Below, piece after piece: positions 40,456 to 60,272 of a DNA stretch of 64,000 bases. The first letter of the stretch is position 1. Each line of letters starts with the position of its first letter. The notes under the pieces are model-generated. The model searched no databases, was not told where the DNA came from, and saw only the letters and a list, made by a program, of their open reading frames with translations. Source of the stretch: Ruminococcus sp. Lineage in GTDB: Bacteria; Bacillota; Clostridia; Oscillospirales; Ruminococcaceae. Both the position numbers and the translations under genes were made by a program. The stretch covers positions 2,230 through 66,229 of the forward strand of contig JAJBTZ010000011.1 of the NCBI GenBank assembly GCA_020860605.1, in the 5' to 3' direction.

Positions 40456-41643
40456 TTACTCAAATATTCTCAATGCCTGAATCAAATCTTTCTGCTGCTT
40501 TCCTTTTGCAAAATCGCCTTTAATACCTTTTAGTTTATATTCACCAATCAAAATTTCTTTCATGCACCACCCTGCTTGGTATAACCACGCAAACGGCTTT
40601 AACCACGGGTGCTTCTTTACTAATTTCCACCTGAGCATTCCATATTTCTGCAAAGTTCTGAAAAAATCTCCGAGGTTATTGCACTTTGAGAATAGAAACG
40701 CACCTTTTCCCTCTGAAGTTGCTTTCGCCTTTCTGCCGAAATTGCCCTGTGTATAAAAGTAATCCAGAAGCTCTGTACACAGTTTTTCATCTGCGTCTGA
40801 GCACCATGTGATGTCTTCACGAAGTCCTAAATACATCTGGCACATCTTCGCGACAGTCTTCGCTATAACATCAAGACCTGCTTTTTCAAAGACCGGCTTG
40901 AACTCATTGCTGTATGCCACATCGTCCAAGTTCTTGTCCACAAACATCATCCAGTCAATAATCTGGCGGAAGCCCAAGCCTCCATCAAGGTGTTTAACAA
41001 TATGTAGTAGCAAAACAAGACCGTTCTGCAAAGTAGGGAGAACAGGTACTTCGTAGGTTTCGCATGGGATCAACTGTACATTCTTTAAACCGTCCTGAAA
41101 CAGTCCGAAAAGATACTCATCATCGCTTTTCATTCCCGCAGGATACTTGTGAATCTCAAATGTAATGCCGTTTTTCTCAAGCGTATAGTGGTAATCGACA
41201 TTATCCTCATCATAGGTGAGAACGTAGCCATTGTCAAGCATAAGACGATAGGCTTCATCAAACTTTTCTATCGGAACGAGAAAGTCGATGTCGCCCATCG
41301 CTCTGTATTCAGGATTTGGATAATTGACTGCAGCCGCTGTTCCTTTCAGAATCGCCATTTCGATATTGTGAGACGAAAGAAGCTTGTACAAGTCATGCTG
41401 TTCGTTTTGAATTTCGGTGAAACGGTGAATGTTGTACATGGTGGCGTTGATCCATTTCTCAGATAATTCATCCGACACAACATCCGCGACCATGTCGGTA
41501 AAGAGATAGGCGATGGATTGGGCTGTGAGCTCTTTGTAGATGGCGGACCAATCGGAAGATTGGATGGTTGGAGGCACAGCTTGGTTTCTGGACCATGCGG
41601 ATATTAAATTGGTGATTATGAATCTCATAAAAACTGTCACCAT
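40456..41643 (-). CDS. uncharacterised nucleotidyltransferase family protein (NTP_transf_5-like)
   Basis: 395 aa. LKGTAAAVNYPNPEYRAMGDIDFLV matches the hallmark of that family. Start uncertain (41643 or 41628). Confidence 0.6.
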   Translation of the reverse strand: MVTVFMRFIITNLISAWSRNQAVPPTIQSSDWSAIYKELTAQSIAYLFTDMVADVVSDELSEKWINATMYNIHRFTEIQNEQHDLYKLLSSHNIEMAILKGTAAAVNYPNPEYRAMGDIDFLVPIEKFDEAYRLMLDNGYVLTYDEDNVDYHYTLEKNGITFEIHKYPAGMKSDDEYLFGLFQDGLKNVQLIPCETYEVPVLPTLQNGLVLLLHIVKHLDGGLGFRQIIDWMMFVDKNLDDVAYSNEFKPVFEKAGLDVIAKTVAKMCQMYLGLREDITWCSDADEKLCTELLDYFYTQGNFGRKAKATSEGKGAFLFSKCNNLGDFFRTLQKYGMLRWKLVKKHPWLKPFAWLYQAGWCMKEILIGEYKLKGIKGDFAKGKQQKDLIQALRIFE

Positions 41644-41681
41644 CCCATTTTAACAGAGAGAAGTTAATTCATCGACACTCC

Positions 41682-42209
41682 TCAAATTCGCTTTAACTCC
41701 ATCCCTTCAATATCTTTATCGGAAATAATTAACTTGTTGTTGAGCTTCGGCCACTCAATTCCAACATCAGGATCATCGTATCTGAGCACACACGCTGCTT
41801 CTTTTTTGAACCCTCCATCTATACACCACTGCATCAAAACATCATCCTCAAGTGTTAAGTAGCCATGAGCAAATCCTTTAGGAACATACATAATTTTTCT
41901 GTTTTCAAAGGAAAGTACCTCTCCAACATATTGACCGAACGTATCTGAGCCCTTTCTTATATCCACACCCACAGAAAAAACAGAACCGTGAAGGCAGGAA
42001 ACCAGTTTTGCCTGTTCATATGGTGTCTTTTGAAAGTGAAGACCACGCATAGTATTGGCTTTATAACTGTATCCATGATTTATTTGACATACATCAAAAT
42101 TGATTCCAAGTTTTCTCGCAGAATCAATCTCCAGTGAAACTGAGGTATACCCTCTATCGTCTGAGTAAACATCCAGACCTTTAAAAACAATAACAGAATC
42201 TTGTCTCAA
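41682..42209 (-). CDS. RmlC-like cupin sugar-nucleotide epimerase (second copy)
   Basis: 175 aa. MRGLHFQ..QAKLVSCLHGSVFSVGVDIRKGS..GFAHGY resembles dTDP-4-dehydrorhamnose 3,5-epimerase but is distinct from rfbC at 57736-58350. Confidence 0.65.
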   Translation of the reverse strand: MRQDSVIVFKGLDVYSDDRGYTSVSLEIDSARKLGINFDVCQINHGYSYKANTMRGLHFQKTPYEQAKLVSCLHGSVFSVGVDIRKGSDTFGQYVGEVLSFENRKIMYVPKGFAHGYLTLEDDVLMQWCIDGGFKKEAACVLRYDDPDVGIEWPKLNNKLIISDKDIEGMELKRI

Positions 42210-42230
42210 TTCTGAACACTTCCTTATAAA

Positions 42231-42665
42231 TCATTCAAAGCTCTTACGAATGGTCTCCATTTCCGATGAATTGGGAAATACTTTGTTGACACCAACTACT
42301 GTATGGAAAGGTGGTACATCCTTAGTTACAATTGCGCCAGCACCAACAATCGCGCCTTCGCCGATTTCAACATGTCCAATAATTGTAGCTCTTGCCCCAA
42401 GAATTGCTCCTTTATGAACTACAGGTGCGTTTTCCAAGCCTTTTGAGGCTCCTAATGTGACACCATGCTGAATAATAACCTTAGATTCAACAACCGCATA
42501 CTTGCTAATCACGACGCCCAATGCAGAATGCTGGAATGAAACATCATCAGCAATATTAGCATCTATTGGAATATCACATCCATAGTAATGGCGCATAAAC
42601 CAACTAATCAAGCGTCTACCCCCCCACGCTTTTCTTCCTAATTGCAAGCATTTACTGACACTCAC
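42231..42665 (-). CDS. hexapeptide-repeat (CysE/WcaB-like) O-acetyltransferase carrying a 5' G7 tract
   Basis: 144 aa from GTG 42665. Left-handed beta-helix repeats (IIQHGVTLG, ILGARATIIGHVEIGEGAIVGAGAIV). Codons 14-16 lie within the G7 tract. Confidence 0.7.
   Translation of the reverse strand: MSVSKCLQLGRKAWGGRRLISWFMRHYYGCDIPIDANIADDVSFQHSALGVVISKYAVVESKVIIQHGVTLGASKGLENAPVVHKGAILGARATIIGHVEIGEGAIVGAGAIVTKDVPPFHTVVGVNKVFPNSSEMETIRKSFE
42619..42625 (-). repeat. G7 homopolymer tract (C7 on the plus strand) in acetyltransferase codons 14-16
   Basis: Read directly. G6 or G8 gives a stop within 1-3 codons after the tract. Confidence 0.95.
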
Positions 42666-43702
42666 TTCTGAATACCCCTCTCTGTAAAATGTGGCTCTCT
42701 ATTTTTTGTACTTTCTTTTCAATGAAAATATTAGACAAAACGGCAAACATAAATGTTAACACCATTGAAATCAGAATCAACAACCATTCTCTTCCTGAAA
42801 TTACCTGTATGAGAAAAGTTATTATCGGCATATGCCATACATATATTCCATACGATAATTCAACCTTAAGGCGACACTTTCCAAATCGAAACGCAAGACC
42901 TAATGTCAACATTCCTGCTAACAGTACAGTTATAGGATCTGTATAATATCCCGCTTCTGCAAGTGGTTCGACATGATACTTTATCAGCAAATGCCATGCC
43001 AAAAATGCAACTGTTATGTAAATGAGATTATTACAGATAAATCGTATTACACTGTCTTTGAACTTGTATCCTAGCACTCCAATCAAGAAAAAGTACAGAT
43101 ACGGCAAAAAACTACTGGAATATATTTTAGCCACAATGCCAAATCCATTATTTTGACAAAGTGAGACAAGCTCATTTCCAATCAGATTAATAAGAAAAGC
43201 ACACGCAAATGTAATCCCCCAAAAGGTCTTGCTGCAATTGCTAATAAGCACCTTTTTACAAAGCACCGCTATCACGTAAATCTGAAGTTCAATCCATATA
43301 GCCCATATTGCTCCGTTACTGATACCATATATCTCATTACCGTTTGGCTTTAATATCATTTTTACTGCAAAAATCAGTACATCCTCAGCACTAAGTTGTA
43401 CCCCCCTGAATCACACTCAGCACATATGCAGCTATAATCATGGCGATAATACTAACGATATACACAGGGTAGATTCGGAAAAATCTCTTTATAAGATAGA
43501 CTCCACCACTCGACCGTTCTAAAGAAGGTATAAGGAAGAAACCACATATTACAAAGAAAGCAACTAATGATGCACCAGCAAAGAGGAATCTATCATATGC
43601 TAGGTTTTCTAATCCAAAAACCGCAACAGAATAGTGAGAAAACATGATCAGTACTGAAGCAACTAATCTAATTACGTCAAAAGAATTTTCCTTATAGTTC
43701 AT
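42652..43702 (-). pseudogene. acyltransferase family 3 (OafA-like O-acyltransferase), split by a frameshift at a G6 tract
   Basis: The 103-aa N-terminal ORF (43391-43702) and the 235-aa C-terminal ORF (42652-43359) are consecutive membrane segments. Deleting one G from the tract at 43401-43406 joins them without a stop. Confidence 0.75.
43401..43406 (-). repeat. G6 homopolymer tract at the acyltransferase-3 frameshift
   Basis: Read directly. G5 or G8 restores the long ORF. Confidence 0.95.
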
Positions 43703-43756
43703 ATCGACATCCTCCAGGCTTCCTTGCTTTTATAAAGTCCAGCCCTTGCTGGCGTT

Positions 43757-45142
43757 TTACTTTTTATAAAATGAAATGTATTTCTTTAAATTCTTACCAT
43801 AGAAGACCAAGTCAAGCAAAGCAATTACTATAAAGTATGCAAAGAAGCCAACAAAATCGTTGCTAATGCAATTTACAAATATAAGAAATACGGCAACAAA
43901 AAGCAACAGGTACAATACGTCTCGTAACTTAATTTTTATAAATTTAAATTGAAATGCGCCCACCACAAGCCATATATAATAAATAATCACTGTTGCGATT
44001 GCAATTCCGATGTAGTTATTCAGGACACGGACAGCTATGGTGTCTAAAACAACGGCTAAGAGCAAGAGACCAATTAATGTTTTAGTATATGTCGCTGTCT
44101 TCTTCTTAATTTTGTACAAGTTTACATATATGCAATTCACAACCGCCATAGCAGGGAAAACCAAAAAATAAACAACAATAACTTCTAAGCTATCTACATA
44201 TTTCGGTATAAAAGCCTTAACGATTATAGAAGCTGCAAAATAAGCACACCCAGATAGCGTTCCGAAGATAAAGAGTAACTCTTTTATGCTATTGTATTCC
44301 TTATCCTCCCATCTTCCCTGTGCCATTGCAGGAAATAAAGGTTGCGCTATTGAAGTAATAAAAACTGTCATCAATGACTGCAAAGAAAGTCCAAAAGAAT
44401 AATAAGCAAAATCTGATGTACTAAAAACGGAGTTAACAAACTGCTTATCAACTGATGTAAATAAAGTATTGATATAGCTTCCCAAAACCATCACAATACC
44501 TGTTTTCTCTGTGTCTAAATTCTCTTTGCTTAAAAATTTCGTGCAATGAGAGCCTTTCAGAATACGAAACACTTGGAAAAGCATCCACACGAATGCCACC
44601 CAGTATACAAACAAATAAGACAATATGTACTGTTGTCCTGAGAGGCTGCCAGATACTAAATATATTGTCAATGCAAGCAATGGCACAGATACCGATAACA
44701 CCATGCTTATGCGTGAATAAGTTTTAAACTGACTCCAGGCTTGCAATAAAGATCTATAACTTCCTACACTACAAAACGGCAATATTACAATTGCTATATA
44801 AAACAGTATTTCGCTTTTTGATACCAGTGCGATTACTGTAAAGACGATGGAGAAGAAAAGTAAAATAAAAAACGTAATCAAGCTTTCGGTTTTCAAACGA
44901 TTCTTATCCAGATCATTAACATCCTTTCCTGCATAATTGACAACCATGCCAGACGGAAAACCTAAATGCAGTATTGTGATATAACTCACATATAGGGTAA
45001 ATGTATGGTATTGGGCATATGAATCAATAGATAAAATTCTGGGAAAAATAAAGCTTCCAATAAAGCCTACAGCTGCTACTAAAAAATTCGCAGATAGAAC
45101 CCTCATTATATTGCTTTTTAACGAGTTATTTTGCAAGTACAA
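43757..45142 (-). CDS. wzx: Wzx-type oligosaccharide flippase (MOP superfamily)
   Basis: 461 aa and about 12 TM helices. Typical polysaccharide biosynthesis protein composition and context. Confidence 0.7.
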   Translation of the reverse strand: MYLQNNSLKSNIMRVLSANFLVAAVGFIGSFIFPRILSIDSYAQYHTFTLYVSYITILHLGFPSGMVVNYAGKDVNDLDKNRLKTESLITFFILLFFSIVFTVIALVSKSEILFYIAIVILPFCSVGSYRSLLQAWSQFKTYSRISMVLSVSVPLLALTIYLVSGSLSGQQYILSYLFVYWVAFVWMLFQVFRILKGSHCTKFLSKENLDTEKTGIVMVLGSYINTLFTSVDKQFVNSVFSTSDFAYYSFGLSLQSLMTVFITSIAQPLFPAMAQGRWEDKEYNSIKELLFIFGTLSGCAYFAASIIVKAFIPKYVDSLEVIVVYFLVFPAMAVVNCIYVNLYKIKKKTATYTKTLIGLLLLAVVLDTIAVRVLNNYIGIAIATVIIYYIWLVVGAFQFKFIKIKLRDVLYLLLFVAVFLIFVNCISNDFVGFFAYFIVIALLDLVFYGKNLKKYISFYKK

Positions 45143-45154
45143 ACACCTCCAAGG

Positions 45155-45808
45155 TTAATGTTTGCAAGATACAATCTTTTCAGAAAATTCAATCGGCTTA
45201 TCAATTAAGCCATAGAACTCCATAATTTCCTCTGGCTTATATTCCCACCATTTTGACTTTTCAATCTCTATAATTTCTTCGTTATTAAAACGATACTTGA
45301 CTACTTTTGCGGGATTGCCTGCCACTACAGCATATGGCGGTACATCATGCGTTATAATTGAACCAGCAGCTAAAACAGCCCCGTTTCCTATGCTTCTACA
45401 TCCAGCGGTTATAAGAACGCCATATCCACACCACGCGCCGTGACCAATAGTTAACTTGTTTCTTTCGACATCGTTAACCTTAAATCCGTATGAAGTATTA
45501 TAAAAATACGGAGACATCGCCACATAATTCATCGGATGGTTAGCTGCGAAATAATGCACGTCTTTGGCAAAGGAGCAGTATCTCCCGACATGAATTTCGC
45601 CGCCCACAGCATAATTGAAATCGGAGGCAAAACAGCCGTAGCTATACATTTCTACGTCCACTTTATATTTTTCTCGATAATAGTCACGTAAGCTTTTTGA
45701 TTGTTGCTGTCCTCCCTCTTTTTGAATTATCTTAGGCATAAATATATGCTTTCCTAAAACAGGAATATCAAACAACTTTTTATACAATTCAAGACACTCC
45801 ATATACAA
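45155..45808 (-). CDS. hexapeptide-repeat O-acetyltransferase (XAT/CatB-related)
   Basis: 217 aa. [48 protein letters not shown]. Confidence 0.75.
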
Positions 45809-45815
45809 TCATCTT

Positions 45816-46982
45816 TTATAACGTATTCTTTCTTGCCCTACTCACAGTTCCTCTAAACGATTTCAGGAAAGAAATTGCTGATTCATTTTTGGCATAGCTC
45901 AACATATTCTTAGTATCATACTCGGGAGAGCTTTTTCCCATAAGTCTGAGTGCTAAAACCTTGCTAGCAATATTCGTTCTTTTCGAATAGTGATTGGGCT
46001 GAACAAACCTTATGGTATCTACCTTATCGTCAATCTTATTCAAATCAATCGCTTTATCTTTAAACGCTCTATTTAAAAGCTCTAAACCTGTTTCTGTCCA
46101 AGCAAATACAATATTTCTACCGTCTTTTTCCGTAAAATCAGGCTTGTTATTAGCGTCAAGATACCAATAATCACCACATGAAATATCAGCCCGCTCGCCA
46201 ATCCCATCAAAGCAAAACTTACATGACTTTCTTATATCTCTGCCCAAAATCTCAATCCAACTTTTCTCGTATTCCATTGTGTGTGCTTTGCCATCGTCAT
46301 CTATGGCTGTTGTAAGCCCAGGCCATCCATTTCCTCTATAACGAAGCTCCTTACATTTGTCGCATTTCAATTCATCAAGCAATTTCTTGTTTGCATCTTC
46401 GCTTGGGATTCCAGCACAGAAGAAAGAGATTAAATACGGAATCCTTTTCCTCAATTTCTCATCGGAATCCATATAGTTTCTGATTGCAGCTACGTCACAG
46501 GGCTTTCCGATAAAGCAGTATCTTTCTCCTTCTCTCAAAAAAGCGGAAAGATTATACAAAGGAGATGATTGGCAATAACGTGATCCAGAGCAAGAATATA
46601 TGTCTTCAACGCATCTTGAGCATACAACATCTGTTGAATATTGCTCATGTTCCGAGGCTTTTACTTGAATAACGCCGTCAACCAAGCTATGAGCCAAAAG
46701 GTATGCCGCTAAAGCAGAAACCACGCCACCACTAGATGCCTTAGTTCGTAGTTCTTCATCCGTGGACCACCCTTGGAATACTCCGTGATAATCTCCCCAT
46801 ACACTTCCATTATACTTTCTCACACCATTCTTCCCGATTGGACAAACGGAAACCATAGATGCTTTTTCTGCTTCTTTGCCCTCAAAGTCGGGATAATAGA
46901 AGCCTTTACTATCCTTGCAAAAGTCTATATCATAAATATCGTGACAAAGACCACAGCCGGAACAAAAATCATAAAAACTCAA
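45816..46982 (-). CDS. FrhB-like (coenzyme F420 hydrogenase beta-subunit family) Fe-S flavoprotein
   Basis: 388 aa. N-terminal CSGCGLCHD cluster and an FrhB-type C-terminal domain. Overlaps the pyruvyl transferase gene by 4 nt, the usual pairing. Confidence 0.7.
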   Translation of the reverse strand: MSFYDFCSGCGLCHDIYDIDFCKDSKGFYYPDFEGKEAEKASMVSVCPIGKNGVRKYNGSVWGDYHGVFQGWSTDEELRTKASSGGVVSALAAYLLAHSLVDGVIQVKASEHEQYSTDVVCSRCVEDIYSCSGSRYCQSSPLYNLSAFLREGERYCFIGKPCDVAAIRNYMDSDEKLRKRIPYLISFFCAGIPSEDANKKLLDELKCDKCKELRYRGNGWPGLTTAIDDDGKAHTMEYEKSWIEILGRDIRKSCKFCFDGIGERADISCGDYWYLDANNKPDFTEKDGRNIVFAWTETGLELLNRAFKDKAIDLNKIDDKVDTIRFVQPNHYSKRTNIASKVLALRLMGKSSPEYDTKNMLSYAKNESAISFLKSFRGTVSRARKNTL

Positions 46983-48139
46983 GACTGTTCCCCTTCCAAT
47001 TTGCTTATCTCACCTCTCATAGCGTTTTTAAAATCATAGAGATACTGATCAATAGCATTCATCGATTTATTTATTGCGTTTCTGAGGTTATCTTTATTCT
47101 CAATCCACTCTAATGATTTTTTAACTGCAACTTCCGTGCTATCTGTGCAACCATGAATTACATAATCATAATTAAGATTCTCATATAATCCCTCAAATTT
47201 ACGGCTATATGAAAAAGGAATAACAGGTACATGGGATGAGTATGCTGCTATAGTTGAATGCATCCTTGACCCAAGAAAAACGTCCATGCTACTAATATAA
47301 CTCTTTGCATCAATAGGATCTGTGAAAGCTGGTGCAGCTATTAAGCTGTGCTCTTTTGCTATGCCCCTACATACACTGACATCTCCATCAATATTATCTG
47401 AATCCGTCTCAATTACATGAGGAATAATGTGTATTTCAACGTCATCCCTCTTTTTTAGAGCTAAAATCAACTCAGTAATATATCTTCTGTAATCAACTGT
47501 TAACGAAAATTGATTTTCTTTAATAAAGCCGCCGTTCCATAATAATCCAGATACATTAATTCCAATATTCAGCTTTCTTTTATCAGTAGAATACTTCTGT
47601 GAATCATACGGTAAAGCAAAAGCCAAGTCAGTAACAACCATAGGATTAATCTTTGTAAGTTTTCTCACATACTCAGCTGATAACTGATCTCTTGTTGTCA
47701 CAAAACAAGCATGCTTAATCGCATACTTTGCCATCGTTTCCAGCTTCTTATTGCTAAAAGGACCATATGTTTGTGGCAACAAATAAAGTGGTGTTCCACA
47801 TTTTTCAACTAGTATTTTAAATAGCGTAGTATAAAATACATTCTTGGGAAAATATATATCTGAGAACCCATCGCCACAGGTAATATCACAAACAAAATCG
47901 CAGGACTTTATCATCTCACGCCACTCAAATTTAGGGTCCTTGATTTTCAATCTGCCGATGCTCATTTTGATATTTGGAAATTGATTCATCAATCTATCAA
48001 GAGAAGCAACCGGGGTAAAAAAATGAACCTCCAAATCATCATTTGTCATTTTATCCAGCATACTTAAAAAGGAATATGTCAGAGCTTCACATCCCTTATT
48101 TGCATCTTCTACTACGAAGCCTAGCAAGCCAATTTTCAT
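46979..48139 (-). CDS. polysaccharide pyruvyl transferase family protein
   Basis: 386 aa. N-terminal KIGLLGF..NKGCEAL and a central GSRMHS motif typical of the CsaB/WcaK-type family. Confidence 0.7.
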   Translation of the reverse strand: MKIGLLGFVVEDANKGCEALTYSFLSMLDKMTNDDLEVHFFTPVASLDRLMNQFPNIKMSIGRLKIKDPKFEWREMIKSCDFVCDITCGDGFSDIYFPKNVFYTTLFKILVEKCGTPLYLLPQTYGPFSNKKLETMAKYAIKHACFVTTRDQLSAEYVRKLTKINPMVVTDLAFALPYDSQKYSTDKRKLNIGINVSGLLWNGGFIKENQFSLTVDYRRYITELILALKKRDDVEIHIIPHVIETDSDNIDGDVSVCRGIAKEHSLIAAPAFTDPIDAKSYISSMDVFLGSRMHSTIAAYSSHVPVIPFSYSRKFEGLYENLNYDYVIHGCTDSTEVAVKKSLEWIENKDNLRNAINKSMNAIDQYLYDFKNAMRGEISKLEGEQS

Positions 48140-49281
48140 TCTAATTCCCCCGTTGAAGAAAGTGCATTCCTTATATTTTCTAAAACACTAAATTTGTTAT
48201 GTTCATCCGGCTCAACATAAGCTCCTTCGCCCCACTCGTTCCATGCCATAAGAAACAGATAGTCGGTGTGGTACTCATTTTTCGCTTTTACAATCAGCTG
48301 CTTTAGATATTTTCCAAACTTATTAGGAGTGAATCCGCATACAATTGTACTATTAAACCCTTTACGAGGAGAGGCATCATAATTCACAAATGCACATGGA
48401 ATGATATTTTCTTGTGCTTGCCTTTGCAAAATGAACTTCCAAATTCCGTCGTAGCTATACTTGTATAGATGTAAAGACTTAAACTTTCCTTTTGTAGCAA
48501 TGTTTAATATTTTCTTACAGTCCTGTCCTATCATATTGAATACAAATCTCGGATTTCTTATCAGATTTTCACGAATAGTATTCATACGATGCTTCATATA
48601 GCATGTCTTAGAATAATCCGGTTCATACTGAATGGATTTACTGATGCAATCTACATTAGCTTTATCCATTAAGTATGTTTGAGCCTGAGAAATGAATGAT
48701 ATTCCCTTAAGACCATTTTCAACTGCCCTACGATTTAAGTATGAGAACATTCTTTCAGCACATTCTATCTTTTCAGGCTGATAAATGACAAGTAACGGCT
48801 TCTCATTAAACTTAATGTATCTACTATCCGAAAAAAATGGTAGTAAATATTGAAAATGCTTCTCCCACTCTTCTTCGTCACCATACTTAACATCCATCAA
48901 TATATCTGTATCTCCGCCGGTCCAAGTACGTGCCCAATTATGATTTGCCCAGCTTAAGCAAAAAGGCAGGTCTAAATCTTTGTTGGCTAAGTACATATCA
49001 ACCGGCTTCTCCATGAGTTGACGTCCTTCTCCCATCCAATAGTGGTAAAAGCAGAAGCCGTATACACCATATTTTTTTGCAAGTGAAATTTGCCACTCAA
49101 AAGTCGACTTTTCCTCCAGAGAATAAAAATTATCGTTCAGCGGAATAGTTGGCTGCACATGCCCACGAAATAGGGGCTTTGACTTTTTTACATTGGTCCA
49201 TTCTGTAAATCCCTTCCCCCACCATTTATCATTTTCAGGAAATGCATAAAATTGCGGCAAATAAAAAGCTATGATTTTCAT
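48136..49281 (-). CDS. WbsX-family glycosyltransferase / GH99-like domain protein
   Basis: 381 aa. Hallmark N-terminus KIIAFYLPQFYAFPENDKWWGKGFTEWTNV. Confidence 0.75.
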   Translation of the reverse strand: MKIIAFYLPQFYAFPENDKWWGKGFTEWTNVKKSKPLFRGHVQPTIPLNDNFYSLEEKSTFEWQISLAKKYGVYGFCFYHYWMGEGRQLMEKPVDMYLANKDLDLPFCLSWANHNWARTWTGGDTDILMDVKYGDEEEWEKHFQYLLPFFSDSRYIKFNEKPLLVIYQPEKIECAERMFSYLNRRAVENGLKGISFISQAQTYLMDKANVDCISKSIQYEPDYSKTCYMKHRMNTIRENLIRNPRFVFNMIGQDCKKILNIATKGKFKSLHLYKYSYDGIWKFILQRQAQENIIPCAFVNYDASPRKGFNSTIVCGFTPNKFGKYLKQLIVKAKNEYHTDYLFLMAWNEWGEGAYVEPDEHNKFSVLENIRNALSSTGELE

Positions 49282-49298
49282 ATAGTACTCCTTATATA

Positions 49299-50596
49299 TT
49301 AGTTTTCCTCTTCAAGTAAAAAGCCATTTTTTCGAGCTGCAAATGTCAAGAACAGAATTATGTAAAAAATACGAGACTCAGTGTCTTGAGCTATGCTAAA
49401 TAAGGTCAAAAAATACGTCAAAAAACCGATTCCAATCATTTTAAACAAAGAAATATAACGGTCAGGGATTTTACTAAGCTTCATAGCAAAGCAGTCTTTC
49501 AGTGCACTTAAACAAAGCAATACCTTGGCTACTAATGAAAATATCCCATATCTGTACAACCAATTCAGTACCTCTACTTCTATACTTTCTTTAGTGGCAT
49601 AGTAACCATATGATACATTACCCATATAATACTCGTAATCCAATGTTGCGCCTGCACCATATCCAAACAATGGATGTTCTTTAACTTTTTCAAAAACCCA
49701 TGCATAAAGCAGAATACGATGTCCCTCAGCAGTCCCAACGCCAGTATCGGAGCCTGAAATATTATCTGCAAAGCTATCATCAAATACAGATAAAATCATA
49801 TACAATAGATTTCTCATAATGTTAGATGTTCCACTCGACAACAACGTCGACACAAATAAAACGACTACAAGTGCTGCTAATACCCCAAGCAGTCGTTTTG
49901 CAAAATCATGAAATCCAAGACTCATCCAAATAAGAATTTGGCAAATGATAAAGAATACTATACTACCTCGCGATATAGTACAAATTGTTCCAACAAACAG
50001 TAACATATATATGATATTGTATTTTAATTTTTCTCTTGAATCCTGAGCTTTGTTCTGTAAATACACGCATAGTGGTGAAATAAGCAAATTATAAGCACCA
50101 TACGAATTTGACTGATAAGTAAAAGATTTTGCACGCACTAGTCCCAGTCTAATTTGATCTGTTATTTCAGCTTGGCTAGTATTTAGTAGAAAAAAACATT
50201 ATATCCTGTGATTGTTTCAATAACTGCAAATATAAATAATAGACCCGCCACTGAGACAAGAACTTCAATGACTCTGTTGAATTTTTCCTCAGAATCAACC
50301 TCATTGATAATGAGAATTCCTAAAACAGGCACATATGCGATATAATAAATATTTGATACCCATTTCTCGTTGACAATTCCACTTACAAATGTAGATACCA
50401 CAAATAAAGCCATAAAGATATCTGTCCAATTTGAAGGTCTTTTCAGAGTAAGCTTTCCGTGTGTTGTAAACAAATAGAGAATAAAAAACAGGGCTACAAG
50501 AATGAAAACTCCAGAAATGTTCCCGACAACAAAATAAGTTGGCAAAATCGGATATAATGCTATGAATAAAATCATTATAGAAAATCTATCAACCAT
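49299..50596 (-). pseudogene. wzy: Wzy-type O-antigen/repeat-unit polymerase, split by a frameshift at a T7 run
   Basis: The 137-aa N-terminal ORF ends ..GYNVFFY*. The 279-aa C-terminal ORF carries the Wzy_C-like TISRGSIVFF region. Adding one T to the run at 50190-50196 reads through (..NVFFLLNTSQAEITDQIRLGLVRAKSFTYQ..). Confidence 0.7.
50190..50196 (-). repeat. T7 homopolymer run (A7 on the plus strand) at the wzy frameshift
   Basis: Read directly. T8 restores the reading frame. Confidence 0.95.
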
Positions 50597-50664
50597 TCTC
50601 TTTTTCCTCTTTTTAACCTCGTTCTAGTATTCTTTAAAATGTTCATGCTTTATTTCGATATATA

Positions 50665-52002
50665 TTAAATATCCAACGTGTTAACGACATATCCTTCAGT
50701 TGCTTTCTCCGAAGGAATTATCTTCCCCGGATTGCCAATAACAATACTATTATCAGGCACGTCAAAATTTACAAATGCTCCCGGAGCAATCAACACATTA
50801 TTGCCTACCTTTATATTACCAACTATTATTGCGTTTGAGCCGATCCAGACTCTGTCTCCTATCGTTGGATTTCCCTGACGCTTGCCTCTGCGCTCATAGC
50901 CGATAGTGACACCTTGAAGTATCTCGCAGTCTTTTCCAATAATAACACCGCCATTTATTGCTATACCTCCGACATGTCTGATTATAAAACCAGATCCAAT
51001 TTGTGTTGTCGTTCCAAGATCTACTCCATACTTGGTAGCATAATGACCATAAATTGCTCTCCAAAAGCAAAACAACACCTTATTCTTGTCCTTGTACTTT
51101 TTACATTTGCGAAACAAGTAAACTACTCTGTATTTTGAAATGCCCATCCAGTGAACCCAAGTCCTAAAATCAGTTTTTCCTGTCCAGCGATATAAGCCAT
51201 ACAAATAGGGCCTTCTACGGAGTCTTTCTAAATCTTGTACCCCCCCACGCTTCCAAATATTTATCAGTTTCAAGCGTGCTGTCTTATACTTTTCTCTTGT
51301 CCTCATTACCCATCTAGGAACTCCGTTGCGTACCCCTATCTCAACGCCTTCCTGAAAAACCTTTTTTGCATTCTCGTCACTAGCTCCTCCGGCAGACATA
51401 ATAGTAGTGACTTCTGGGAACCTTTGGAATTTAACCCCATTACTATAGAATCGTGCCATTAAATCTTTGTCCATTGCATAACGAAACTCAACGTCAAATG
51501 TTCCATACTTCTGATAAGCTGTCTTCTTTACAAAACAAGCCGGATGCATAAGAACCATGTCGTACTTTAGCTTCTTGAGCTTCATAGATGATTTTCTGAC
51601 ATATTGCATATTATTAACTTCATCGACCCACAATATATCTCCGCATATTACTTCACAGTCACTATCAAATGAATCTACTATTTTTTTAAGAATTTGTTTA
51701 TCAGAAAGCCTATCATCCGAATTTATAATCCCAATAATATCTCCAGTTGACCTCTCAATGCCCTTGTTAAAAGCATCACTTATGCCTTTATCAGGTTCGG
51801 ATTTGAAGTTTGTCTCAATACCAGCCTCATGGAATTTAGGAATATACGATTCTATCAACTGTATTGTTCCATCGGTTGATCCGCCATCAACAAGAACATA
51901 CTCCAATGGGCGATATGTCTGTTCTAAGACAGAACACATCGTAGCTTCAATGCTCTTCTGCGAGTTATATGAAATTGTGATTATCGAAACTTTCTCGCCC
52001 AT
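50665..52002 (-). CDS. GT2 glycosyltransferase fused to a CysE/WcaB-like acetyltransferase through a G7 tract
   Basis: 445 aa. N-terminal GT2 (VSIITISYNS, VDGGSTDGT, DSDD-like SDDRL). C-terminal hexapeptide domain (IGDRVWIGSNAIIVGNIKVGNNVLIAPGAFV). The hinge ..WKRGGVQD.. is encoded by the tract. Confidence 0.7.
   Translation of the reverse strand: MGEKVSIITISYNSQKSIEATMCSVLEQTYRPLEYVLVDGGSTDGTIQLIESYIPKFHEAGIETNFKSEPDKGISDAFNKGIERSTGDIIGIINSDDRLSDKQILKKIVDSFDSDCEVICGDILWVDEVNNMQYVRKSSMKLKKLKYDMVLMHPACFVKKTAYQKYGTFDVEFRYAMDKDLMARFYSNGVKFQRFPEVTTIMSAGGASDENAKKVFQEGVEIGVRNGVPRWVMRTREKYKTARLKLINIWKRGGVQDLERLRRRPYLYGLYRWTGKTDFRTWVHWMGISKYRVVYLFRKCKKYKDKNKVLFCFWRAIYGHYATKYGVDLGTTTQIGSGFIIRHVGGIAINGGVIIGKDCEILQGVTIGYERRGKRQGNPTIGDRVWIGSNAIIVGNIKVGNNVLIAPGAFVNFDVPDNSIVIGNPGKIIPSEKATEGYVVNTLDI
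51240..51246 (-). repeat. G7 homopolymer tract at the GT2-acetyltransferase hinge
   Basis: Read directly. G6 stops 3 codons after the tract (..RGGYKI*) and G8 stops 8 codons after it. Confidence 0.95.
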
Positions 52003-52019
52003 TTTGTATTTTCCTCTCT

Positions 52020-53228
52020 TTAGGTGTATATGTCGCTCATACTATGTACTTTTCGGCTCATTAAGCAACTGTCCTCAATATGTTGACTCTGCTGTATACT
52101 CAGCTCTTTCAGGATACTTGGATTGTTAATCAAAGTACCCAGCTTTTCAGCCAAAGCAGATATACAGTAATCATAGCTAATTGCGTTAATACAGCCTTCT
52201 GAATTCTCTCCTAATAAGATTTTAGGTCCTCCTGCTGCAATCGCAATACAAGGCAGTCCGATACTCATTGCTTCCATCATTGTCATGCAGCCAGAATCGC
52301 GTAATGTTGTGTTCACAAACAAATCAAACTGACTGTAGTACTCAAATATCTTATCATGCTGTACCGGAGGATCGAAGAATACCTGTTTATTCAAATGTTC
52401 CTCTGCCAATTTCTGCAATGCTGGCTTCTGGTTTCCCTCGCCTAATATATGCAATTCAGCGTTAGGATGCTTGTCTGCTACCTGTAAGAAAGCTTTAAGA
52501 CCGATGTCAAAGGCTTTCCAGTATATCAATCTACCTGCCATAACGATCTTTACTTTACTGTCGTTTCTTTCTATTCGCTGTACATCCGGCATCTTTTCTA
52601 AGCCAATTGCCGGAACAACTCTTGTCTTGCTCTGATATTTTTCTGGTATCATGGCTTTCGTTTCCTCAGTTGCAACAAGAATAGCTTTCGCACTCTTCAT
52701 TGCTTTCCGAATAGACGGCGTAACTAATGCTGTTGTTTGAGAGAGCTTTCTGACCGCTTCAATCAGCCTTTCTTTGGTCGTCATCTCAATTTTAATTTCT
52801 GAAGGAATATTTTCTCCGCCAGAAACAGTTCCCCAAATTAACGGAATCCCCAGTTTGTACATATATGACGGCTGAGTATATGACACGAAAGTAACGTGTT
52901 GAACGAGATCAAAGTGTATTTTACTGTGCCACTCTTTCGCCACTTTCAGTGCCTTTCTCTGCCACATCATATAGAATAAGCGCATTCCACGGCGACCTTT
53001 TTCCCAAAAGGTCAGCTTCCTAGATAAACCAACATATATGAAATGAAGGTTGTCATTCTTGTACTCTGGATTCTTCTTTAAATAATCAGTAATGGTTGGC
53101 TCATTATTATCCCTTGTCAAGACCCAGACTTCATGGTGCTTAGCTAATTCTATTGCCCAGCTCCAGCCAACTCCAGGCTCTGAGCCTTTATTCGGTTCAC
53201 AAGCATATGCTGATAGTAAAATCTTCAT
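52020..53228 (-). CDS. GT4 family glycosyltransferase
   Basis: 402 aa. N-terminus KILLSAYACEPNKGSEPGVGWSW and a C-terminal E..7..E-type region (DSGCMTMMEAMSIGLP). Confidence 0.75.
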   Translation of the reverse strand: MKILLSAYACEPNKGSEPGVGWSWAIELAKHHEVWVLTRDNNEPTITDYLKKNPEYKNDNLHFIYVGLSRKLTFWEKGRRGMRLFYMMWQRKALKVAKEWHSKIHFDLVQHVTFVSYTQPSYMYKLGIPLIWGTVSGGENIPSEIKIEMTTKERLIEAVRKLSQTTALVTPSIRKAMKSAKAILVATEETKAMIPEKYQSKTRVVPAIGLEKMPDVQRIERNDSKVKIVMAGRLIYWKAFDIGLKAFLQVADKHPNAELHILGEGNQKPALQKLAEEHLNKQVFFDPPVQHDKIFEYYSQFDLFVNTTLRDSGCMTMMEAMSIGLPCIAIAAGGPKILLGENSEGCINAISYDYCISALAEKLGTLINNPSILKELSIQQSQHIEDSCLMSRKVHSMSDIYT

Positions 53229-53396
53229 TTTATGAGTCTCCTCTTAAACAGAGCACAAACCCACGTCATCTACTGAAATCATATAAATGGGTCATAGCTT
53301 TAATTGTTTGCCTTTTCAGACTAGAATTATCGTATAAATCATCTGCAGAAACTTTATAGGAATATCTACGCAGCATTCTGGGTACGCGTCTTGTTA

Positions 53397-54242
53397 TTAC
53401 ACAGCAACCTTTGCACAAATGAGCGAGTACCCCCCCACACTGCTGCTTTCTATCAATTCATCTTTTGTAAAAAGATGATTGAGTTGCTGCGACAATATGC
53501 AAATCATATTGTTGCGGTCAGTCTCATCGAGCTGAGAGACGTCTAAGATAATACCTCGTGGATTTATCATTCTGGTTAGATAAAACTTAGCTTTTGAAAT
53601 TTTACTCTCCTGCGTTTTCTTGTTGACTAATCTGATCGTACGTCTTACTACAGGACATTCCTGTTCAATATTTTTCCATTCTTCCGCAACTACATCTTCG
53701 TATATTGCATTCGCAAACTCTGTTGTAAGAAATGAGTTCATCAATTCTTTTACTTTGCATTGATCGGATAAATACACTTTGCGTATAAAATCTCTGTACT
53801 TCTCTTTTATGTAGCCATGATATAAATATCTTGAGAAAAGCATCGTCACTGCTTGAACAGAATCACTTGCTACATAGATTCCATCAACTTTCCGTCTATC
53901 TTCTAAAAGCATTTCTGCAGGCAGTAAGTTAATGCCATTCCAACCATATGATTGGAAATCAAAATGTGCAAGATAATCTCCATCATCCGCTGACATCACA
54001 ACTGTCCACACATTTCCAAAATCCCGCCATACGGAATACGCAATCTTCCATCCATTGCTACGTATAATTCTCAATATCTGGTCGCTGTATTTCAAATCAA
54101 TCGCTATATCGACATCATGCAAATCTCCGCTTATGATTTCATCTGCATTACGAAGTACACAGTATCTAATACCAGCTTTTTCAAATTCACTAAAGCAATC
54201 TATGATATATGCTATATCTTTTCTCATTGCCTGCTCCTCCAT
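53397..54242 (-). CDS. uncharacterised NTase-like domain protein, truncated paralog of the next gene
   Basis: 281 aa. Collinear with residues ~10-260 of the 445-aa protein (CVLRNADE..HDVDI, YLYHGYIKEKYRDFI). The position of the paralog's P-loop reads VSQLDETDRNN. A G7 tract lies 13 codons before the stop. Confidence 0.5.
   Translation of the reverse strand: MEEQAMRKDIAYIIDCFSEFEKAGIRYCVLRNADEIISGDLHDVDIAIDLKYSDQILRIIRSNGWKIAYSVWRDFGNVWTVVMSADDGDYLAHFDFQSYGWNGINLLPAEMLLEDRRKVDGIYVASDSVQAVTMLFSRYLYHGYIKEKYRDFIRKVYLSDQCKVKELMNSFLTTEFANAIYEDVVAEEWKNIEQECPVVRRTIRLVNKKTQESKISKAKFYLTRMINPRGIILDVSQLDETDRNNMICILSQQLNHLFTKDELIESSSVGGYSLICAKVAV
53430..53436 (-). repeat. G7 homopolymer tract near the 3' end of the NTase-like paralog
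   Basis: Read directly. Length changes replace only the last ~13 residues with alternative tails. Confidence 0.95.
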
Positions 54243-54255
54243 GTCGATATTTTAC

Positions 54256-55593
54256 TTAGCACTTCGCATTGCATGAATCTAAAATTTCTTTTGCAACATT
54301 ATACACAACATCATCAATGGATTCGTTAACATCAATCTCCACAGCATGTGCAAATTTGAGCTCATTTGTTCTCAGCCGCTGAATCTGCTCCTCTATTTCG
54401 CTCACATCAATTTCTTTCTTTCTCTCGTACAAAACCCGTGGATCACCGATAAGTAGGAATGTCACATCCGGCTTGGGAATCATGAATTTAAAGAAATCGA
54501 GAACCTTGTCGCTGATACTGAGGCGATACCGAATTTTATCCATGTAGTAGTCGTAATAATATCTATCGAACACAACTAAGTGTCCTTTTGAAAGTTGCTT
54601 TCGCACCTTGAGCCAATAGCCAAATAGGTAATCAAAATTGAAGAGCATAAACTTCAAAAAGGACTTCACACGTCCATATGGCTTCTTGGCATGTGGTTCT
54701 GTGACTACAACGCTTTCACCGGATGCACCGCCTTTTTTCTTCACAATGACTCCAGGTCTCCAATGGTTATAGTCAAACATTCCTTCAGGAAATGAATTTT
54801 CAAGTACCTGCTCTAAGCCGTCAATAATCGTGCTTTTGCCGCTTCCATCCGTACCCTCGAAAGCTACCATCAAACCCGGTTTGTTTTTCGCTTTCTTCAG
54901 AAGATATTTATAGTAAGAAATCTTACTTTTCCTTGCGGACTTTTGAAGCGATTTTACTATCCTATCGCGCTGTTCTTCTATCTTAGTCCACTCAGAGTTC
55001 ATTACACACTGATAGACGAATTGAACCGTGTCGCCGTCAAGAAAATTCTCCATAAGAACCTTGACAGACTTTTCATGAGAAGAAAAGACTCCTCCAATAT
55101 ATTCCTTATACTTGCTCTTGATATAACCATTATGAAGAAGTCTGATGAAGAGCTTTGTAACGGCTTCTACGGCAGGGTCAGCCTTATGTATTACACCGCT
55201 GCTGTCGATGTTATCTATAAGGGTTGAATTTTCAAGAAGAACGTAGCCACTCCAAGCAAATGTCGGGAAAACATCAAAATGAGCAATATGTATTTCTTTT
55301 GCACTCTGATCTGCGAAATAAAAATGATAGCACTTGATATTCGTCTTGTCTTTCGAGGCACCAGTTTTGATGTGCATCTTCCAACCACAATCATATGCCA
55401 CTCGTATCATTACATTCTCAACATCTACCAGCCTGTCAGCATCAGCTGTCATATCTATATCGTGTGCTTCGCCATTCTCGACTTCATCAGCATTTCGGAG
55501 TACACAGAATTTTATATTTTCTTTTTCAAGTGCCTTAAATATGGCTTTCACGAAATCAACTTCGCAACTCATATCATCCACTGCCCTTTTCAC
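54256..55593 (-). CDS. two-domain protein: uncharacterised NTase-like N-domain + thymidylate-kinase-like P-loop domain
   Basis: 445 aa. N-domain FCVLRNADEVENGEAHDIDM. C-domain begins VAFEGTDGSGKST, the dTMP-kinase-type Walker A. Confidence 0.55.
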   Translation of the reverse strand: MKRAVDDMSCEVDFVKAIFKALEKENIKFCVLRNADEVENGEAHDIDMTADADRLVDVENVMIRVAYDCGWKMHIKTGASKDKTNIKCYHFYFADQSAKEIHIAHFDVFPTFAWSGYVLLENSTLIDNIDSSGVIHKADPAVEAVTKLFIRLLHNGYIKSKYKEYIGGVFSSHEKSVKVLMENFLDGDTVQFVYQCVMNSEWTKIEEQRDRIVKSLQKSARKSKISYYKYLLKKAKNKPGLMVAFEGTDGSGKSTIIDGLEQVLENSFPEGMFDYNHWRPGVIVKKKGGASGESVVVTEPHAKKPYGRVKSFLKFMLFNFDYLFGYWLKVRKQLSKGHLVVFDRYYYDYYMDKIRYRLSISDKVLDFFKFMIPKPDVTFLLIGDPRVLYERKKEIDVSEIEEQIQRLRTNELKFAHAVEIDVNESIDDVVYNVAKEILDSCNAKC

Positions 55594-56511
55594 TTATGCA
55601 AGCTGTGTTATCAGCCTTCTAAACTCGCTTAAAAAAGCTTCTTTGTCTATCTCAAACTCAGGGATATACTTTCTAATTTCTTTAATGCCACTTTCATAAG
55701 CATCTTCAAAAGAAAGATTATTCAGAGCAACGCCTATAACCGTTACATAATGCATGATGTCATAGCCTGCCATTCTGTAGCCACATTGCTCCCAGTCAAA
55801 TACCGTATAGCGGTTTTCAGTCTTTTTAATATTCCAAGGCGCAAAATCACCGTGTGAAAACTCACATCCCGACAAATGCTCCCCAAATTTTATAGCCGAT
55901 ATTTCTTTGTAAATCTCAACAATATCTTCTGTGAGAACCGGCTCGACTTTTTCACCTTTAAACTCCCTTGTCAATTGTAAATTGAACGGATTGCCATTAT
56001 CTGCTTTTATAGCTGTGATGAGTTCGGGAATCTCAAATGTCCTGTATGCCCCACGCTTGCTCAGGAAATCCATCTCAGCAGACATTTCTTTCTCTGTGGC
56101 GGAGTTTCCTATTTTTACGAAGACTGCATCATCTGTATCATTTCCAAAGCACTGCATTACGAGCTTTTGCTTTTCGTCATATGTTCCGACAATCATGTTC
56201 CATGAACTTTTGCCAGTCTGCTCGAATGCCTTTTCTATCTCTGGATGAAGCTGCACCTTTGCAAAGTAGCCCATTCCAGCTTTTTCGAGCAGCCAAAACG
56301 GAATGCAGTTCAGATATTTCATCAGCAGTCCCAGCTTGCCGGAATATGTAGAGATATTCTGACTCAGCCGTTTCTTTCCGCTGGGAGCAATTATGTATCT
56401 AATCTTATCTCCATTGCAAAGAACAAAGTGCGATGAGTCTTTCTTTTCAGTTTTTTCTATCTTTAGTGCCTGTTTCAGTATGCCAGACGTACTTTTCATA
56501 TCACTCATCAA
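55594..56511 (-). CDS. protein-kinase-like fold phosphotransferase (APH/choline-kinase family)
   Basis: 305 aa. Brenner-type catalytic motif FSHGDFAPWNI followed by VFDWEQCG. Confidence 0.65.
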   Translation of the reverse strand: MMSDMKSTSGILKQALKIEKTEKKDSSHFVLCNGDKIRYIIAPSGKKRLSQNISTYSGKLGLLMKYLNCIPFWLLEKAGMGYFAKVQLHPEIEKAFEQTGKSSWNMIVGTYDEKQKLVMQCFGNDTDDAVFVKIGNSATEKEMSAEMDFLSKRGAYRTFEIPELITAIKADNGNPFNLQLTREFKGEKVEPVLTEDIVEIYKEISAIKFGEHLSGCEFSHGDFAPWNIKKTENRYTVFDWEQCGYRMAGYDIMHYVTVIGVALNNLSFEDAYESGIKEIRKYIPEFEIDKEAFLSEFRRLITQLA

Positions 56512-56525
56512 GTTTTTTGCCCCTC

Positions 56526-57698: not shown

Positions 57699-57735
57699 TT
57701 TTGTATCTTTCCAGGTTTATAGCTTTATTTGAGTA

Positions 57736-58350
57736 CTAAAACCTAAACGTATCTTTCAACCCCACCCACAACTGATCTTTCTCACTCAGCCTAAGTGGCG
57801 TACCATCCTCAAGCGCATATCCCTCAGCAGATGCTGTCCCATTGTAAGCACCTGTTACTCCAACCCCTGCCCAATCAATCCCAATCTTCGGATCATTCCA
57901 GGCAAGTCCTCCCTCGTCATTCGGGTGATAGAAGTCATCGCACTTATAGCAGAACTCTGCCGTATCACTCAATACGAGAAAACCGTGTGCGAAGCCTCTG
58001 GGAATCAGAAACTGCTTCTTGTTCTCCTCAGTCAGCTCAATGCCATACCATTTACCGTAAGTGTCTGAACCACTTCTCAGATCCACGGCTACATCGAAAA
58101 CAGAACCTTTAATCACTCTGACAAGCTTCGTCTGGGGATAATCCTTCTGGAAATGAAGTCCACGAAGGACGCCCTTTGTTGACATCGACTGGTTGTCTTG
58201 AACGAAAGTAATGTCAATTCCCGCTTCTTCCATATCTCTCTGACTGTAGGTCTCCATAAAGTAGCCACGGCTGTCACCATGAACGGCTGGCTCTATTACG
58301 CACAAGCCCTTGATGCCTGCGACGTCCTTTTCAACTTTTATCTGTCCCAT
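57736..58350 (-). CDS. rfbC: dTDP-4-dehydrorhamnose 3,5-epimerase
   Basis: 204 aa. HGDSRGYFMETY, RGLHFQ, GFAHGF motifs. rfbABDC context. Confidence 0.9.
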   Translation of the reverse strand: MGQIKVEKDVAGIKGLCVIEPAVHGDSRGYFMETYSQRDMEEAGIDITFVQDNQSMSTKGVLRGLHFQKDYPQTKLVRVIKGSVFDVAVDLRSGSDTYGKWYGIELTEENKKQFLIPRGFAHGFLVLSDTAEFCYKCDDFYHPNDEGGLAWNDPKIGIDWAGVGVTGAYNGTASAEGYALEDGTPLRLSEKDQLWVGLKDTFRF

Positions 58351-59237: not shown

Positions 59238-59238
59238 A

Positions 59239-60258: not shown

Positions 60259-60272
60259 GATGGTTTCCTCTC

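Follow-up and report, generated by a model that had tools for sequence, protein, structure and literature searches.

Poly-G tracts in a low-GC polysaccharide locus

The stretch of DNA analysed here (the window) covers 64,000 nucleotides of a Ruminococcus sp. contig (JAJBTZ010000011.1) and contains a Wzx/Wzy-type polysaccharide locus in which four genes for putative glycan-modifying enzymes each carry a run of six or seven guanines (tracts T1 to T4, Table 1). All four tracts vary in length among near-identical genomes, three of them have changed repeatedly on a tree of single-nucleotide polymorphisms (SNPs), and the same sites carry G runs in diverged lineages, with changes of length shifting the reading frame. 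As judged from these comparisons, the four G runs are probably genuine simple-sequence-repeat (SSR) contingency, or phase-variable, loci in glycan genes.

The preliminary description of this DNA had located the tracts by eye, and a recount of the window returned exactly the same positions and lengths, with C7 on the + strand at T1, T3 and T4 and C6 at T2. On the - strand, from which the whole polysaccharide locus is read, they are G runs, and all four lie within - strand open reading frames (ORFs), as had been stated. A run count likewise gave no further G/C run of at least six between 39.9 and 57.7 kb; the single other such run in the window is an intergenic G6 at 28150-28155, outside the locus. 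The gene assignments also hold, by Pfam for the hexapeptide acetyltransferase, the Acyl_transf_3 protein and the fusion of a family 2 glycosyltransferase (GT2) with a hexapeptide acetyltransferase, and by a fold match for the nucleotidyltransferase-like protein.

The GC content of the locus is 36-41%, against ~50% in its flanks. Besides the tract-bearing genes, Pfam identifies a WecG/TagA glycosyltransferase, rmlABCD, GT4 and GT1 glycosyltransferases, kinase-like genes, Wzy (split), a WbsX glycosyltransferase, a pyruvyl transferase with an FrhB-like partner, Wzx, an RmlC-like gene and NTP_transf_5. A Y-family (IMS/DinB-UmuC type) DNA polymerase gene is located ~6 kb from the locus (32613-34076, + strand).

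The enrichment of G runs in the locus, assessed by a first-order Markov model and by synonymous-codon shuffles, is modest: three G/C runs of at least seven were observed against 0.3 expected (P ~0.003-0.005), and four of at least six against 1.0-1.5 expected (P 0.012-0.07). GGG is the least used glycine codon there (42 of 358). In shuffles of the entire window G6 shows no enrichment (8 observed, 13 expected); the run signal is confined to the AT-rich locus.

Table 1. Features of the polysaccharide locus (window coordinates unless a related locus is named; a run such as G7 is given by base and length)
Feature	Coordinates	Strand	Details and basis
Wzx/Wzy-type rhamnose-containing cell-wall or capsular polysaccharide locus	40456..62027	-	Pfam, low GC
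Hexapeptide (CysE-like) acetyltransferase gene	42231..42665	-	Pfam Hexapep
T1 poly-G	42619..42625	-	G7 in window; AAGCGT-G7-TAGACGCTT; 5' end of hexapeptide acetyltransferase gene
Acyl_transf_3 (membrane O-acyltransferase) gene, split	42652..43702	-	43391-43702 (103 aa) + 42652-43359 (235 aa); Pfam
T2 poly-G	43401..43406	-	G6 in window, predicted OFF; GATTCA-G6-TACAACTTAG; break point of Acyl_transf_3 gene
Wzy break	~50190 (T7, a thymine run)		Between ORFs 50183-50596 and 49299-50138; single 449-aa ORF in related locus L012
GT2-hexapeptide acetyltransferase gene	50665..52002	-	445 aa at G7; Pfam
T3 poly-G	51240..51246	-	G7 in window, predicted fused/ON; GGAAGCGT-G7-TACAAGATTTAG; inter-domain linker, codon 253
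Nucleotidyltransferase-fold protein gene	53266..54242	-	Annotated ORF 53397-54242, 281 aa at G7; AlphaFold model fold match
T4 poly-G	53430..53436	-	G7 in window; GCAGTGT-G7-TACTCGCTC; in nucleotidyltransferase-fold gene
glf + DUF4422 insert of sister lineages	L012:2947-4856; L041:4836-6724		In place of window 53229-53396

Length polymorphism among near-identical genomes

Close relatives were retrieved by exact-protein look-ups and comprise the NCBI metagenome-assembled genome (MAG) GCA_021205335.1 and the Logan assemblies of 14 SRA runs, 99.8-100% identical to the window, whose proteins are identical to NCBI MAG proteins labelled 'Ruminococcus sp.', a MAG that includes MCC8130297.1 and MCC8130299.1; the look-ups found no records for the 137-residue Wzy fragment and for ORF 24604-26019. 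Each sample is a consensus assembly only, and the tract lengths are consensus lengths. Length polymorphism on otherwise identical flanks, which the preliminary description had proposed to look for in close relatives, was found at all four sites. T1 is G7 in 4 samples and G6 in 9; T2 is G5 in 1 and G6 in 12; T3 is G7 in 3, G6 in 8 and G5 in 1; T4 is G7 in 3 and G6 in 9. All four tracts vary by 1-2 G, none having one fixed length in every close relative, and at least seven tract combinations (T1-T2-T3-T4) occur, including 7-6-7-7, 6-6-6-6, 7-6-6-6, 6-6-7-6, 7-6-6-7 and 7-6-5-6.

Recurrence of the changes was read from a SNP tree, for which a 13.25-kb (13,253 bp) housekeeping recA region (19297-32550) of seven of the same samples served as control. 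This region holds 88 SNP sites and 1 indel site, and no two of its SNP splits conflict; the clades {21348, 21353} and {21352, 21358} are nested within a clade of these four and 21355. On the tree, G7 is present at T1 in the window, 21348 and 21355, at T3 in the window, 21353 and 21358, and at T4 in the window and 21355. A parsimony reading gives at least three independent changes at T1, at least three at T3 and at least two at T4, that is, at least eight over three tracts, an average of ~2.7 for each tract compared with 0.007 for an ordinary nucleotide; the homoplasy would imply switching in both directions. Within the locus all G/C runs of at least six are polymorphic (4/4), compared with 4/27 A/T runs of that length (Fisher P=0.002). 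Among the samples no G5 run differs in length, and neither does the control G6 at 28150, which was compared in 8 sequences.

The rate of change at the tracts is thus far above background and the changes are recurrent, as is characteristic of contingency loci, while a mutator-like background (discussed below) complicates the term 'localized'. The repeats lie in reading frames and are hypermutable in length, the G6-G7 of the window lineage being among the shortest runs commonly accepted for such loci.

Two side observations concern the same assemblies. The sole indel site of the control region (window 31765, A7; deletion or T>A) falls in a DUF5696 / GH101-like gene (30222-32099), called as 625, 637, 509 or 135+497 residues across samples, which from these calls may be another variable surface- or glycan-related gene. 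Most Logan contigs of different samples stop exactly at window 41095 and ~50524; no repeat was found at 41095 inside the window, and the shared ends suggest either that the sequence has further copies elsewhere in the genome or that it varies within samples.

Tracts in diverged lineages

A scan of GTDB genomes returned one related locus only, L012, from an 'Oscillospiraceae bacterium' MAG that is the GTDB species representative of a sister lineage. At ~90% nucleotide identity it has G6 at T1, T2 and T3 and G7 at T4. Other related loci carry G7 (fused) at T3 and GTGTGT-G7 at T4 (L041, 89-93% identity), G9 at T1 and TTC-G9 at T2 (L056/L057, 88-93%), G9 at the T4 site (L040, 79%) and G6, in frame, at T4 (L042, 77%). 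Interruption of the tracts by other bases in relatives would have counted against the preliminary description; the runs are instead uninterrupted down to 77-79% nucleotide identity, at lengths of G6-G9. A scan of JGI metagenomes for the T4 site, with a variable gap, gave 12 matches, all of them chance, without poly-G or similarity to the window, from which it follows that this collection lacks the present organism. In L041 (4637-4657) the T4 flank itself has changed from GTGT to GTGTGT, i.e., from (GT)2 to (GT)3; by its position, the dinucleotide next to the G run can apparently likewise alter copy number and frame.

Sister lineages hold glf (UDP-galactopyranose mutase) and a DUF4422 glycosyltransferase gene between the T4 gene and GT1 (Table 1). 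In L012 a fifth tract, T5 (GTTGT-G6-TACAAC), splits this DUF4422 gene beside glf, and in L041 the same gene is likewise frameshifted precisely at this G6; G5 at T5 would restore a full-length DUF4422 Pfam match (E 7e-68). In the 79%-identical MAG GCA_021200995.1, a G8 (L040:6683-6690, GGTC-G8-TACTGAG) splits a GT4 glycosyltransferase gene, whose counterpart in the window (56526-57698) has no such G run.

When the window is compared with L012, neighbouring genes differ ~30-fold in synonymous divergence (dS), from 1.15 in a 217-residue gene (45155-45808) to 0.04 in Wzy (49299-50596), which points to mosaic recombination inside the locus. The spread across these lineages shows that the tracts are old and have persisted as unbroken G runs whose length changes, in genes which, interrupted as they are, remain under purifying selection. 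Fixed position, varying length and otherwise intact genes indicate that the repeats are kept by selection. Such conservation, combined with purifying selection, is what contingency loci are expected to show and is hard to square with simple pseudogenes or artefacts.

Predicted effects on the encoded products

At each tract a change of length is predicted to alter the product by frameshift, with consequences that differ from gene to gene. The Acyl_transf_3 gene is split exactly at T2, its two halves matching profile positions 2-97 and 115-323 of 326. G5 or G8 joins them into ~358 codons; in the nearest full-length homologues the protein is one chain of 337-346 residues. Intact 349-residue acyltransferases are called in SRR15221354, where T2 is G5, and in SRR15221332 and SRR15221328, where it reads TTC-G9, while the G6 of most samples recurs in L012 and probably in the genome of L041. 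In the comparison of the window with L012, the ratio of nonsynonymous to synonymous divergence (dN/dS) is 0.08 for the N-terminal and 0.35 for the C-terminal half, with no extra stops or lesions. T2 would therefore be expected to switch a membrane O-acyltransferase ON (G5, G8 or equivalent) or OFF (G6, G7).

T3 lies between two domains. At G6 the GT2 part stops at TAG 51228-51230 (257 residues), and the acetyltransferase ORF could begin only at TTG 51202-51204 (179 residues). The fused GT2-acetyltransferase architecture is found in nine other protein clusters (P0009-P0017, 451-466 residues, 53-62% identity), whose conserved KPYLYDLYRWTGK motif lies upstream of that TTG. Because the other clusters are fused and the motif precedes the only available start, the acetyltransferase domain is taken to be native at G7, with G5/G6 a putative 'GT2 only' state. 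The 445-residue fusion form is present in four sequences. G7 would couple the acetyltransferase to GT2 in a bifunctional enzyme, while G5 and G6 would terminate just past an intact GT2, so that acetylation can be lost while the sugar stays. T3 would in this way toggle a domain fusion, not a whole gene.

T1 sits 9-15 codons into the small hexapeptide acetyltransferase, and the frames upstream of it are both open, in the window and in L012. The G7 frame has a candidate start at GTG 42663-42665, preceded by a Shine-Dalgarno-like AGAGGGG at 42675-42681. In the G6/G9 frame candidate starts are ATG 42649-42651, immediately past the acyltransferase stop, and a GTG made by the T1 5' flank, the flank GTG being used by the gene caller in L056. 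The protein is called as 139, 144, 121 or 132 residues in different samples. The length of T1 would pick the start codon, ATG or GTG at G6/G9 and the upstream GTG at G7; G6 and G7 each keep a usable start, i.e., they offer alternative starts only, and G5/G8 is the only frame that is likely OFF. A 6-bp inverted repeat (AAGCGT ... ACGCTT, 42612-42634) brackets T1, with nothing comparable at the other tracts, and might place this tract within a hairpin loop.

The 281-residue T4 protein has no Pfam match. Its AlphaFold model (pLDDT 79) has best matches to the nucleotidyltransferases JHP933, ANT(2'')-Ia and LnuA at E ~1e-4 and a moderate TM of 0.35-0.5, which makes the original nucleotidyltransferase-like label reasonable; profile comparison with the neighbouring NTP_transf_5 protein gave a probability of 3.5%. 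The preliminary description placed T4 13 codons before the stop. This is correct for the G7 frame, but the conserved frame runs 56 codons further, to 53266. In the G5/G8 frame the ORF extends to TGA 53266-53268 (325-327 residues), against 281 or 291 residues in the observed frames. The extension resembles the C-terminus of 330-338-residue homologues and is in frame in a 70%-identical relative (P0280/L042); in L040 it is 80% identical, with dN/dS of 0.24, yet out of frame in both genomes compared. Given this conserved extension, G6 and G7 are both truncated states, and T4 would decide between the conserved last ~56 residues (G5/G8) and a short out-of-frame tail (G6, G7).

Sequences flanking the tracts

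The tracts share more than their G runs. That TA(C) follows them was regarded as unlikely by chance in the preliminary description, and the count agrees: GGGGGGTA was observed 4 times against 0.54 expected (0/100 shuffles). The flanks are AAGCGT-Gn-TAGAC (T1), TTCA-Gn-TACAAC (T2), AAGCGT-Gn-TACAAG (T3), GTGT-Gn-TACTCG (T4) and TTGT-Gn-TACAAC (T5). TA follows five of the five tracts, TAC follows four and GT precedes four, compared with 7-14%, 1.4-5% and 9-14%, respectively, for shorter G runs in the locus (P ~1e-5 to 1e-7 for TAC). A 15-mer is common to T1 and T3 and a 12-mer to T2 and T5. The flanks are alike in DNA although the tracts occupy three different reading frames; they are weaker in the most distant lineages (ATGC-G9-CAT, TCGC-G6-TAT).

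Two explanations of the flank were rejected. A GTAC/GGTAC restriction site does not account for it, GTAC being merely mildly under-represented (0.51) and common in the locus, and GGGTAC occurring 14 times against 10 expected. Paralogy of the two hexapeptide acetyltransferases, considered as a source of the T1/T3 flank, is ruled out at the protein level because T1 and T3 are at non-homologous protein positions and in different frames. It is conceivable, if rather unlikely, that the tracts are copies of a short cassette (R-G-Y-G-T, G6-9, T-A-C-A-A) subject to a sequence-directed process in this Oscillospiraceae clade. Under that idea, ready-made switch modules might possibly spread among glycan genes by short-patch gene conversion, or a trans-acting factor recognising the flank could promote indels; in a smaller variant, the flank GTG might act as an internal start codon. 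The flank may also possibly reflect a sequence requirement of the slippage process.

Evidence against contingency loci and competing explanations

The proposal of contingency loci made in the preliminary description stands in that the tracts are polymorphic at 4/4 sites, recurrent and conserved, and requires qualification in that both states of T1 are startable, T3 is a domain toggle and both observed states of T4 are truncated. Several points weigh against it. Both observed T1 states may be expressed, and the full-length T4 frame was never seen in 13 samples of the window lineage. Campylobacter tracts are typically G8-G13, in an organism that lacks MutSL repair; the G5-G7 of the window lineage are shorter, and rates may accordingly be modest. 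Each sample contributes one consensus length per tract, and reversibility within a clone is inferred from differences between samples. In the control region and in window 41095-62076, SNPs among the SRR152212xx-3xx samples are nearly all transitions; the control region has 135 of them against a single transversion, and each sample carries many private mutations, whereas the transition/transversion ratio between lineages is 2.3-2.7. The spectrum looks like that of a mismatch-repair-deficient (mutator) population, in which homopolymer slippage would be raised generally, and this blurs the concept of 'localized' hypermutation (PMC11868660); a general failure of repair may contribute to the instability of the tracts. 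Inactivating lesions of an ordinary kind are present in the locus as well and fit partial decay or selection for loss. Wzy is split (137 + 279 residues) in the window and in every near-identical sample, where one nucleotide of the L012 sequence is missing (TTTTTTAT to TTTTTTT). Subsets of samples have +-1 indels at 49696, 49425, 49079, 48837, 46449, 53005 and 41981 (in runs T5, T6, A7, T7, A4, G3 and T6, respectively, T here denoting thymine), which hit Wzy, WbsX (independently at two sites), the FrhB-like gene, GT1 and the RmlC-like gene, and SRR15221356 and SRR15221357 share a W-to-stop change at GT1 codon 132 (~52833-52835).

These lesions raise the question of whether the tract changes are a mutational by-product, the locus decaying under relaxed or loss-favouring selection in a mutator, with G runs as merely its most fragile sites and their indels as early pseudogenisation instead of an evolved reversible switch. 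The transition-only-like spectrum, the 7 further indels and the nonsense codon, the Wzy split throughout the window lineage, the excess of indel sites (11 over 17 kb in the locus, a single one over 13 kb in the control) and the OFF or truncated majority states of T2 and T4 all agree with this. Random decay, however, would interrupt the runs or add lesions, whereas the same tract sites persist in lineages 7-23% diverged and the broken genes retain open frames and low dN/dS. ON alleles recur (the intact acyltransferase in three samples), the conflict-free tree requires homoplasy of the tracts in both directions, the intergenic G6 at 28150 does not vary, and L012, whose Wzy is intact, has the same tracts. 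Decay is therefore an unlikely explanation, contingency loci remaining the preferred one. That homopolymer miscalls in sequencing or assembly mimic the G6/G7 differences is far less probable still. Every difference is indeed one of +-1-2 bases in a homopolymer, and the data are metagenome assemblies. Yet the window and the independent Logan assembly of SRR15900781 are 100% identical over ~25 kb, including G7 at T1, T3 and T4, and GCA_021205335.1 agrees in tract length with the Logan assembly of SRR15221349. Neither the G5 runs nor the control G6 vary, the tract states give clean alternative ORFs, and tracts of length 9 with the same flanks exist in other lineages. The worry, voiced in the preliminary description, that the runs are polishing artefacts of a long-read assembly also loses force, since independent assemblers agree and the SPAdes-style record title of a related MAG points to short reads.

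Programmed recoding offers another way to reconcile broken frames with constraint: the G run would be a site of ribosomal frameshifting or transcriptional slippage, 'broken' genes would yield full-length proteins at any tract length, and the DNA polymorphism would be incidental. In most genomes T2, T4 and T5 leave their genes out of frame, despite purifying selection, and the flanks show nucleotide-level conservation across three reading frames, as for a cis-acting signal. The shift needed differs, however, being +1 for T2, T4 and T5 at G6 and -1 for T3 at G6, and it varies with tract length between samples, whereas programmed sites combine a fixed motif with a stimulator, the same shift and invariant DNA. 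A non-exhaustive search turned up no stimulatory stop, rare codon or downstream structure; G runs of 6-7 are not known to be slippery for RNA polymerase; and the ON alleles seen in DNA suffice to explain the constraint. Recoding is accordingly very improbable. Least credible is a shuffling of fixed alleles of stable tract length by recombination between co-resident strains. The dS differences between the window and L012 indicate that the locus recombines over long time scales, but control SNPs in the sampled population are perfectly tree-like, and SNPs within ~1 kb do not track tract state: SRR15221348 and SRR15221349 share three variants and differ at T1.

Mechanism and relation to known systems

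If the tracts are contingency loci, slipped-strand mispairing during replication would add or remove a G and shift the downstream reading frame, and we infer that such changes would be reversible within a clone. From the predicted enzymatic roles, the tracts would act on a single Wzx/Wzy cell-wall polysaccharide, each governing its own step of decoration. As the tracts mutate independently, a population would hold many glycan 'phasotypes', among which phage or host immunity could select.

The closest parallel is offered by Campylobacter jejuni, in which capsule, lipooligosaccharide and flagellar-glycan modification genes are phase-variable through poly-G tracts (PMC8437040, PMC6321876, PMC8355987). 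Both have several intragenic tracts per surface-glycan locus, in decorating and not polymer-building transferases, with independent +-1 G changes and combinatorial phasotypes. The present locus differs in its G5-G7 tracts (G8-G9 in relatives), its origin in a Gram-positive-type Clostridia MAG, its one linker tract and its shared flank. Short tracts, a linker-placed tract that would uncouple domains and a shared flank are somewhat unusual traits.

The pneumococcal gene wciZ is a single-gene system with a single (TA)n dinucleotide repeat. The preliminary description knew of no account of the device in cell-wall glycan loci of spore-forming Firmicutes. For Firmicutes at large it is already on record, slipped-strand mispairing in this O-acetyltransferase gene underlying the interconversion of Streptococcus pneumoniae serotypes 15B and 15C (cited in PMC4432689). 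Both cases concern a repeat in an O-acetyltransferase gene of a Firmicute polysaccharide locus, acetylation being reversibly on or off in wciZ; unlike wciZ, which belongs to a pathogen capsule with serological proof, the present locus has several poly-G tracts and is known from sequence alone. For glycan loci of Clostridia the literature search returned no case of SSR-type switching, and neither the accession numbers nor poly-G phase variation in Firmicutes or Clostridia led to any paper on this taxon. The device is thus not new to the phylum, but is, as far as found, new for Clostridia glycan loci and in a poly-G multi-tract form.

Contingency loci of Haemophilus influenzae and Neisseria (lic1, oafA, lgt), together with the concept of localized hypermutation (PMC11868660, PMC2651432, PMC5084427), are a further parallel; they likewise switch the frames of glycan-decorating enzymes by SSRs, including those for phospho-substituents and O-acetyl groups, with conserved sites of varying length. 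Their repeats are mostly tetranucleotides (Haemophilus) or longer homopolymers, in Gram-negative lipooligosaccharide genes, unlike here. In Bifidobacterium breve, a gut commensal, poly-G replication slippage switches pilus genes (PMC9187656). This is similarly an intragenic G-tract ON/OFF switch of a commensal detected by sequencing, but in an actinobacterium, in pili and not glycan enzymes, and with switching demonstrated by deep sequencing. Clostridioides difficile and Bacteroides vary surface structures through invertible promoters (PMC11868660); the outcome, heterogeneous surface structures in anaerobes, is alike, while the process there is site-specific recombination, and here would be repeat slippage with no invertase or inverted repeats involved.

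Implications

Repeat-slippage phase variation is textbook knowledge for a few Gram-negative pathogens; in Clostridia, phase variation is known mainly through invertible DNA (PMC11868660). The present locus probably represents a multi-tract poly-G 'phasome' in uncultured Ruminococcus/Oscillospiraceae, readable directly from public metagenome assemblies. 'Frameshifted pseudogenes' in the glycan loci of MAGs should consequently be neither dismissed nor automatically corrected, and phasome predictors should include short (G5-G7) tracts as well as linker tracts that would uncouple one domain of a bifunctional enzyme. The same bet-hedging as in those pathogens may let commensal anaerobes diversify the O-acylation and side groups of their surface glycans, which would bear on phage predation and antibody recognition.

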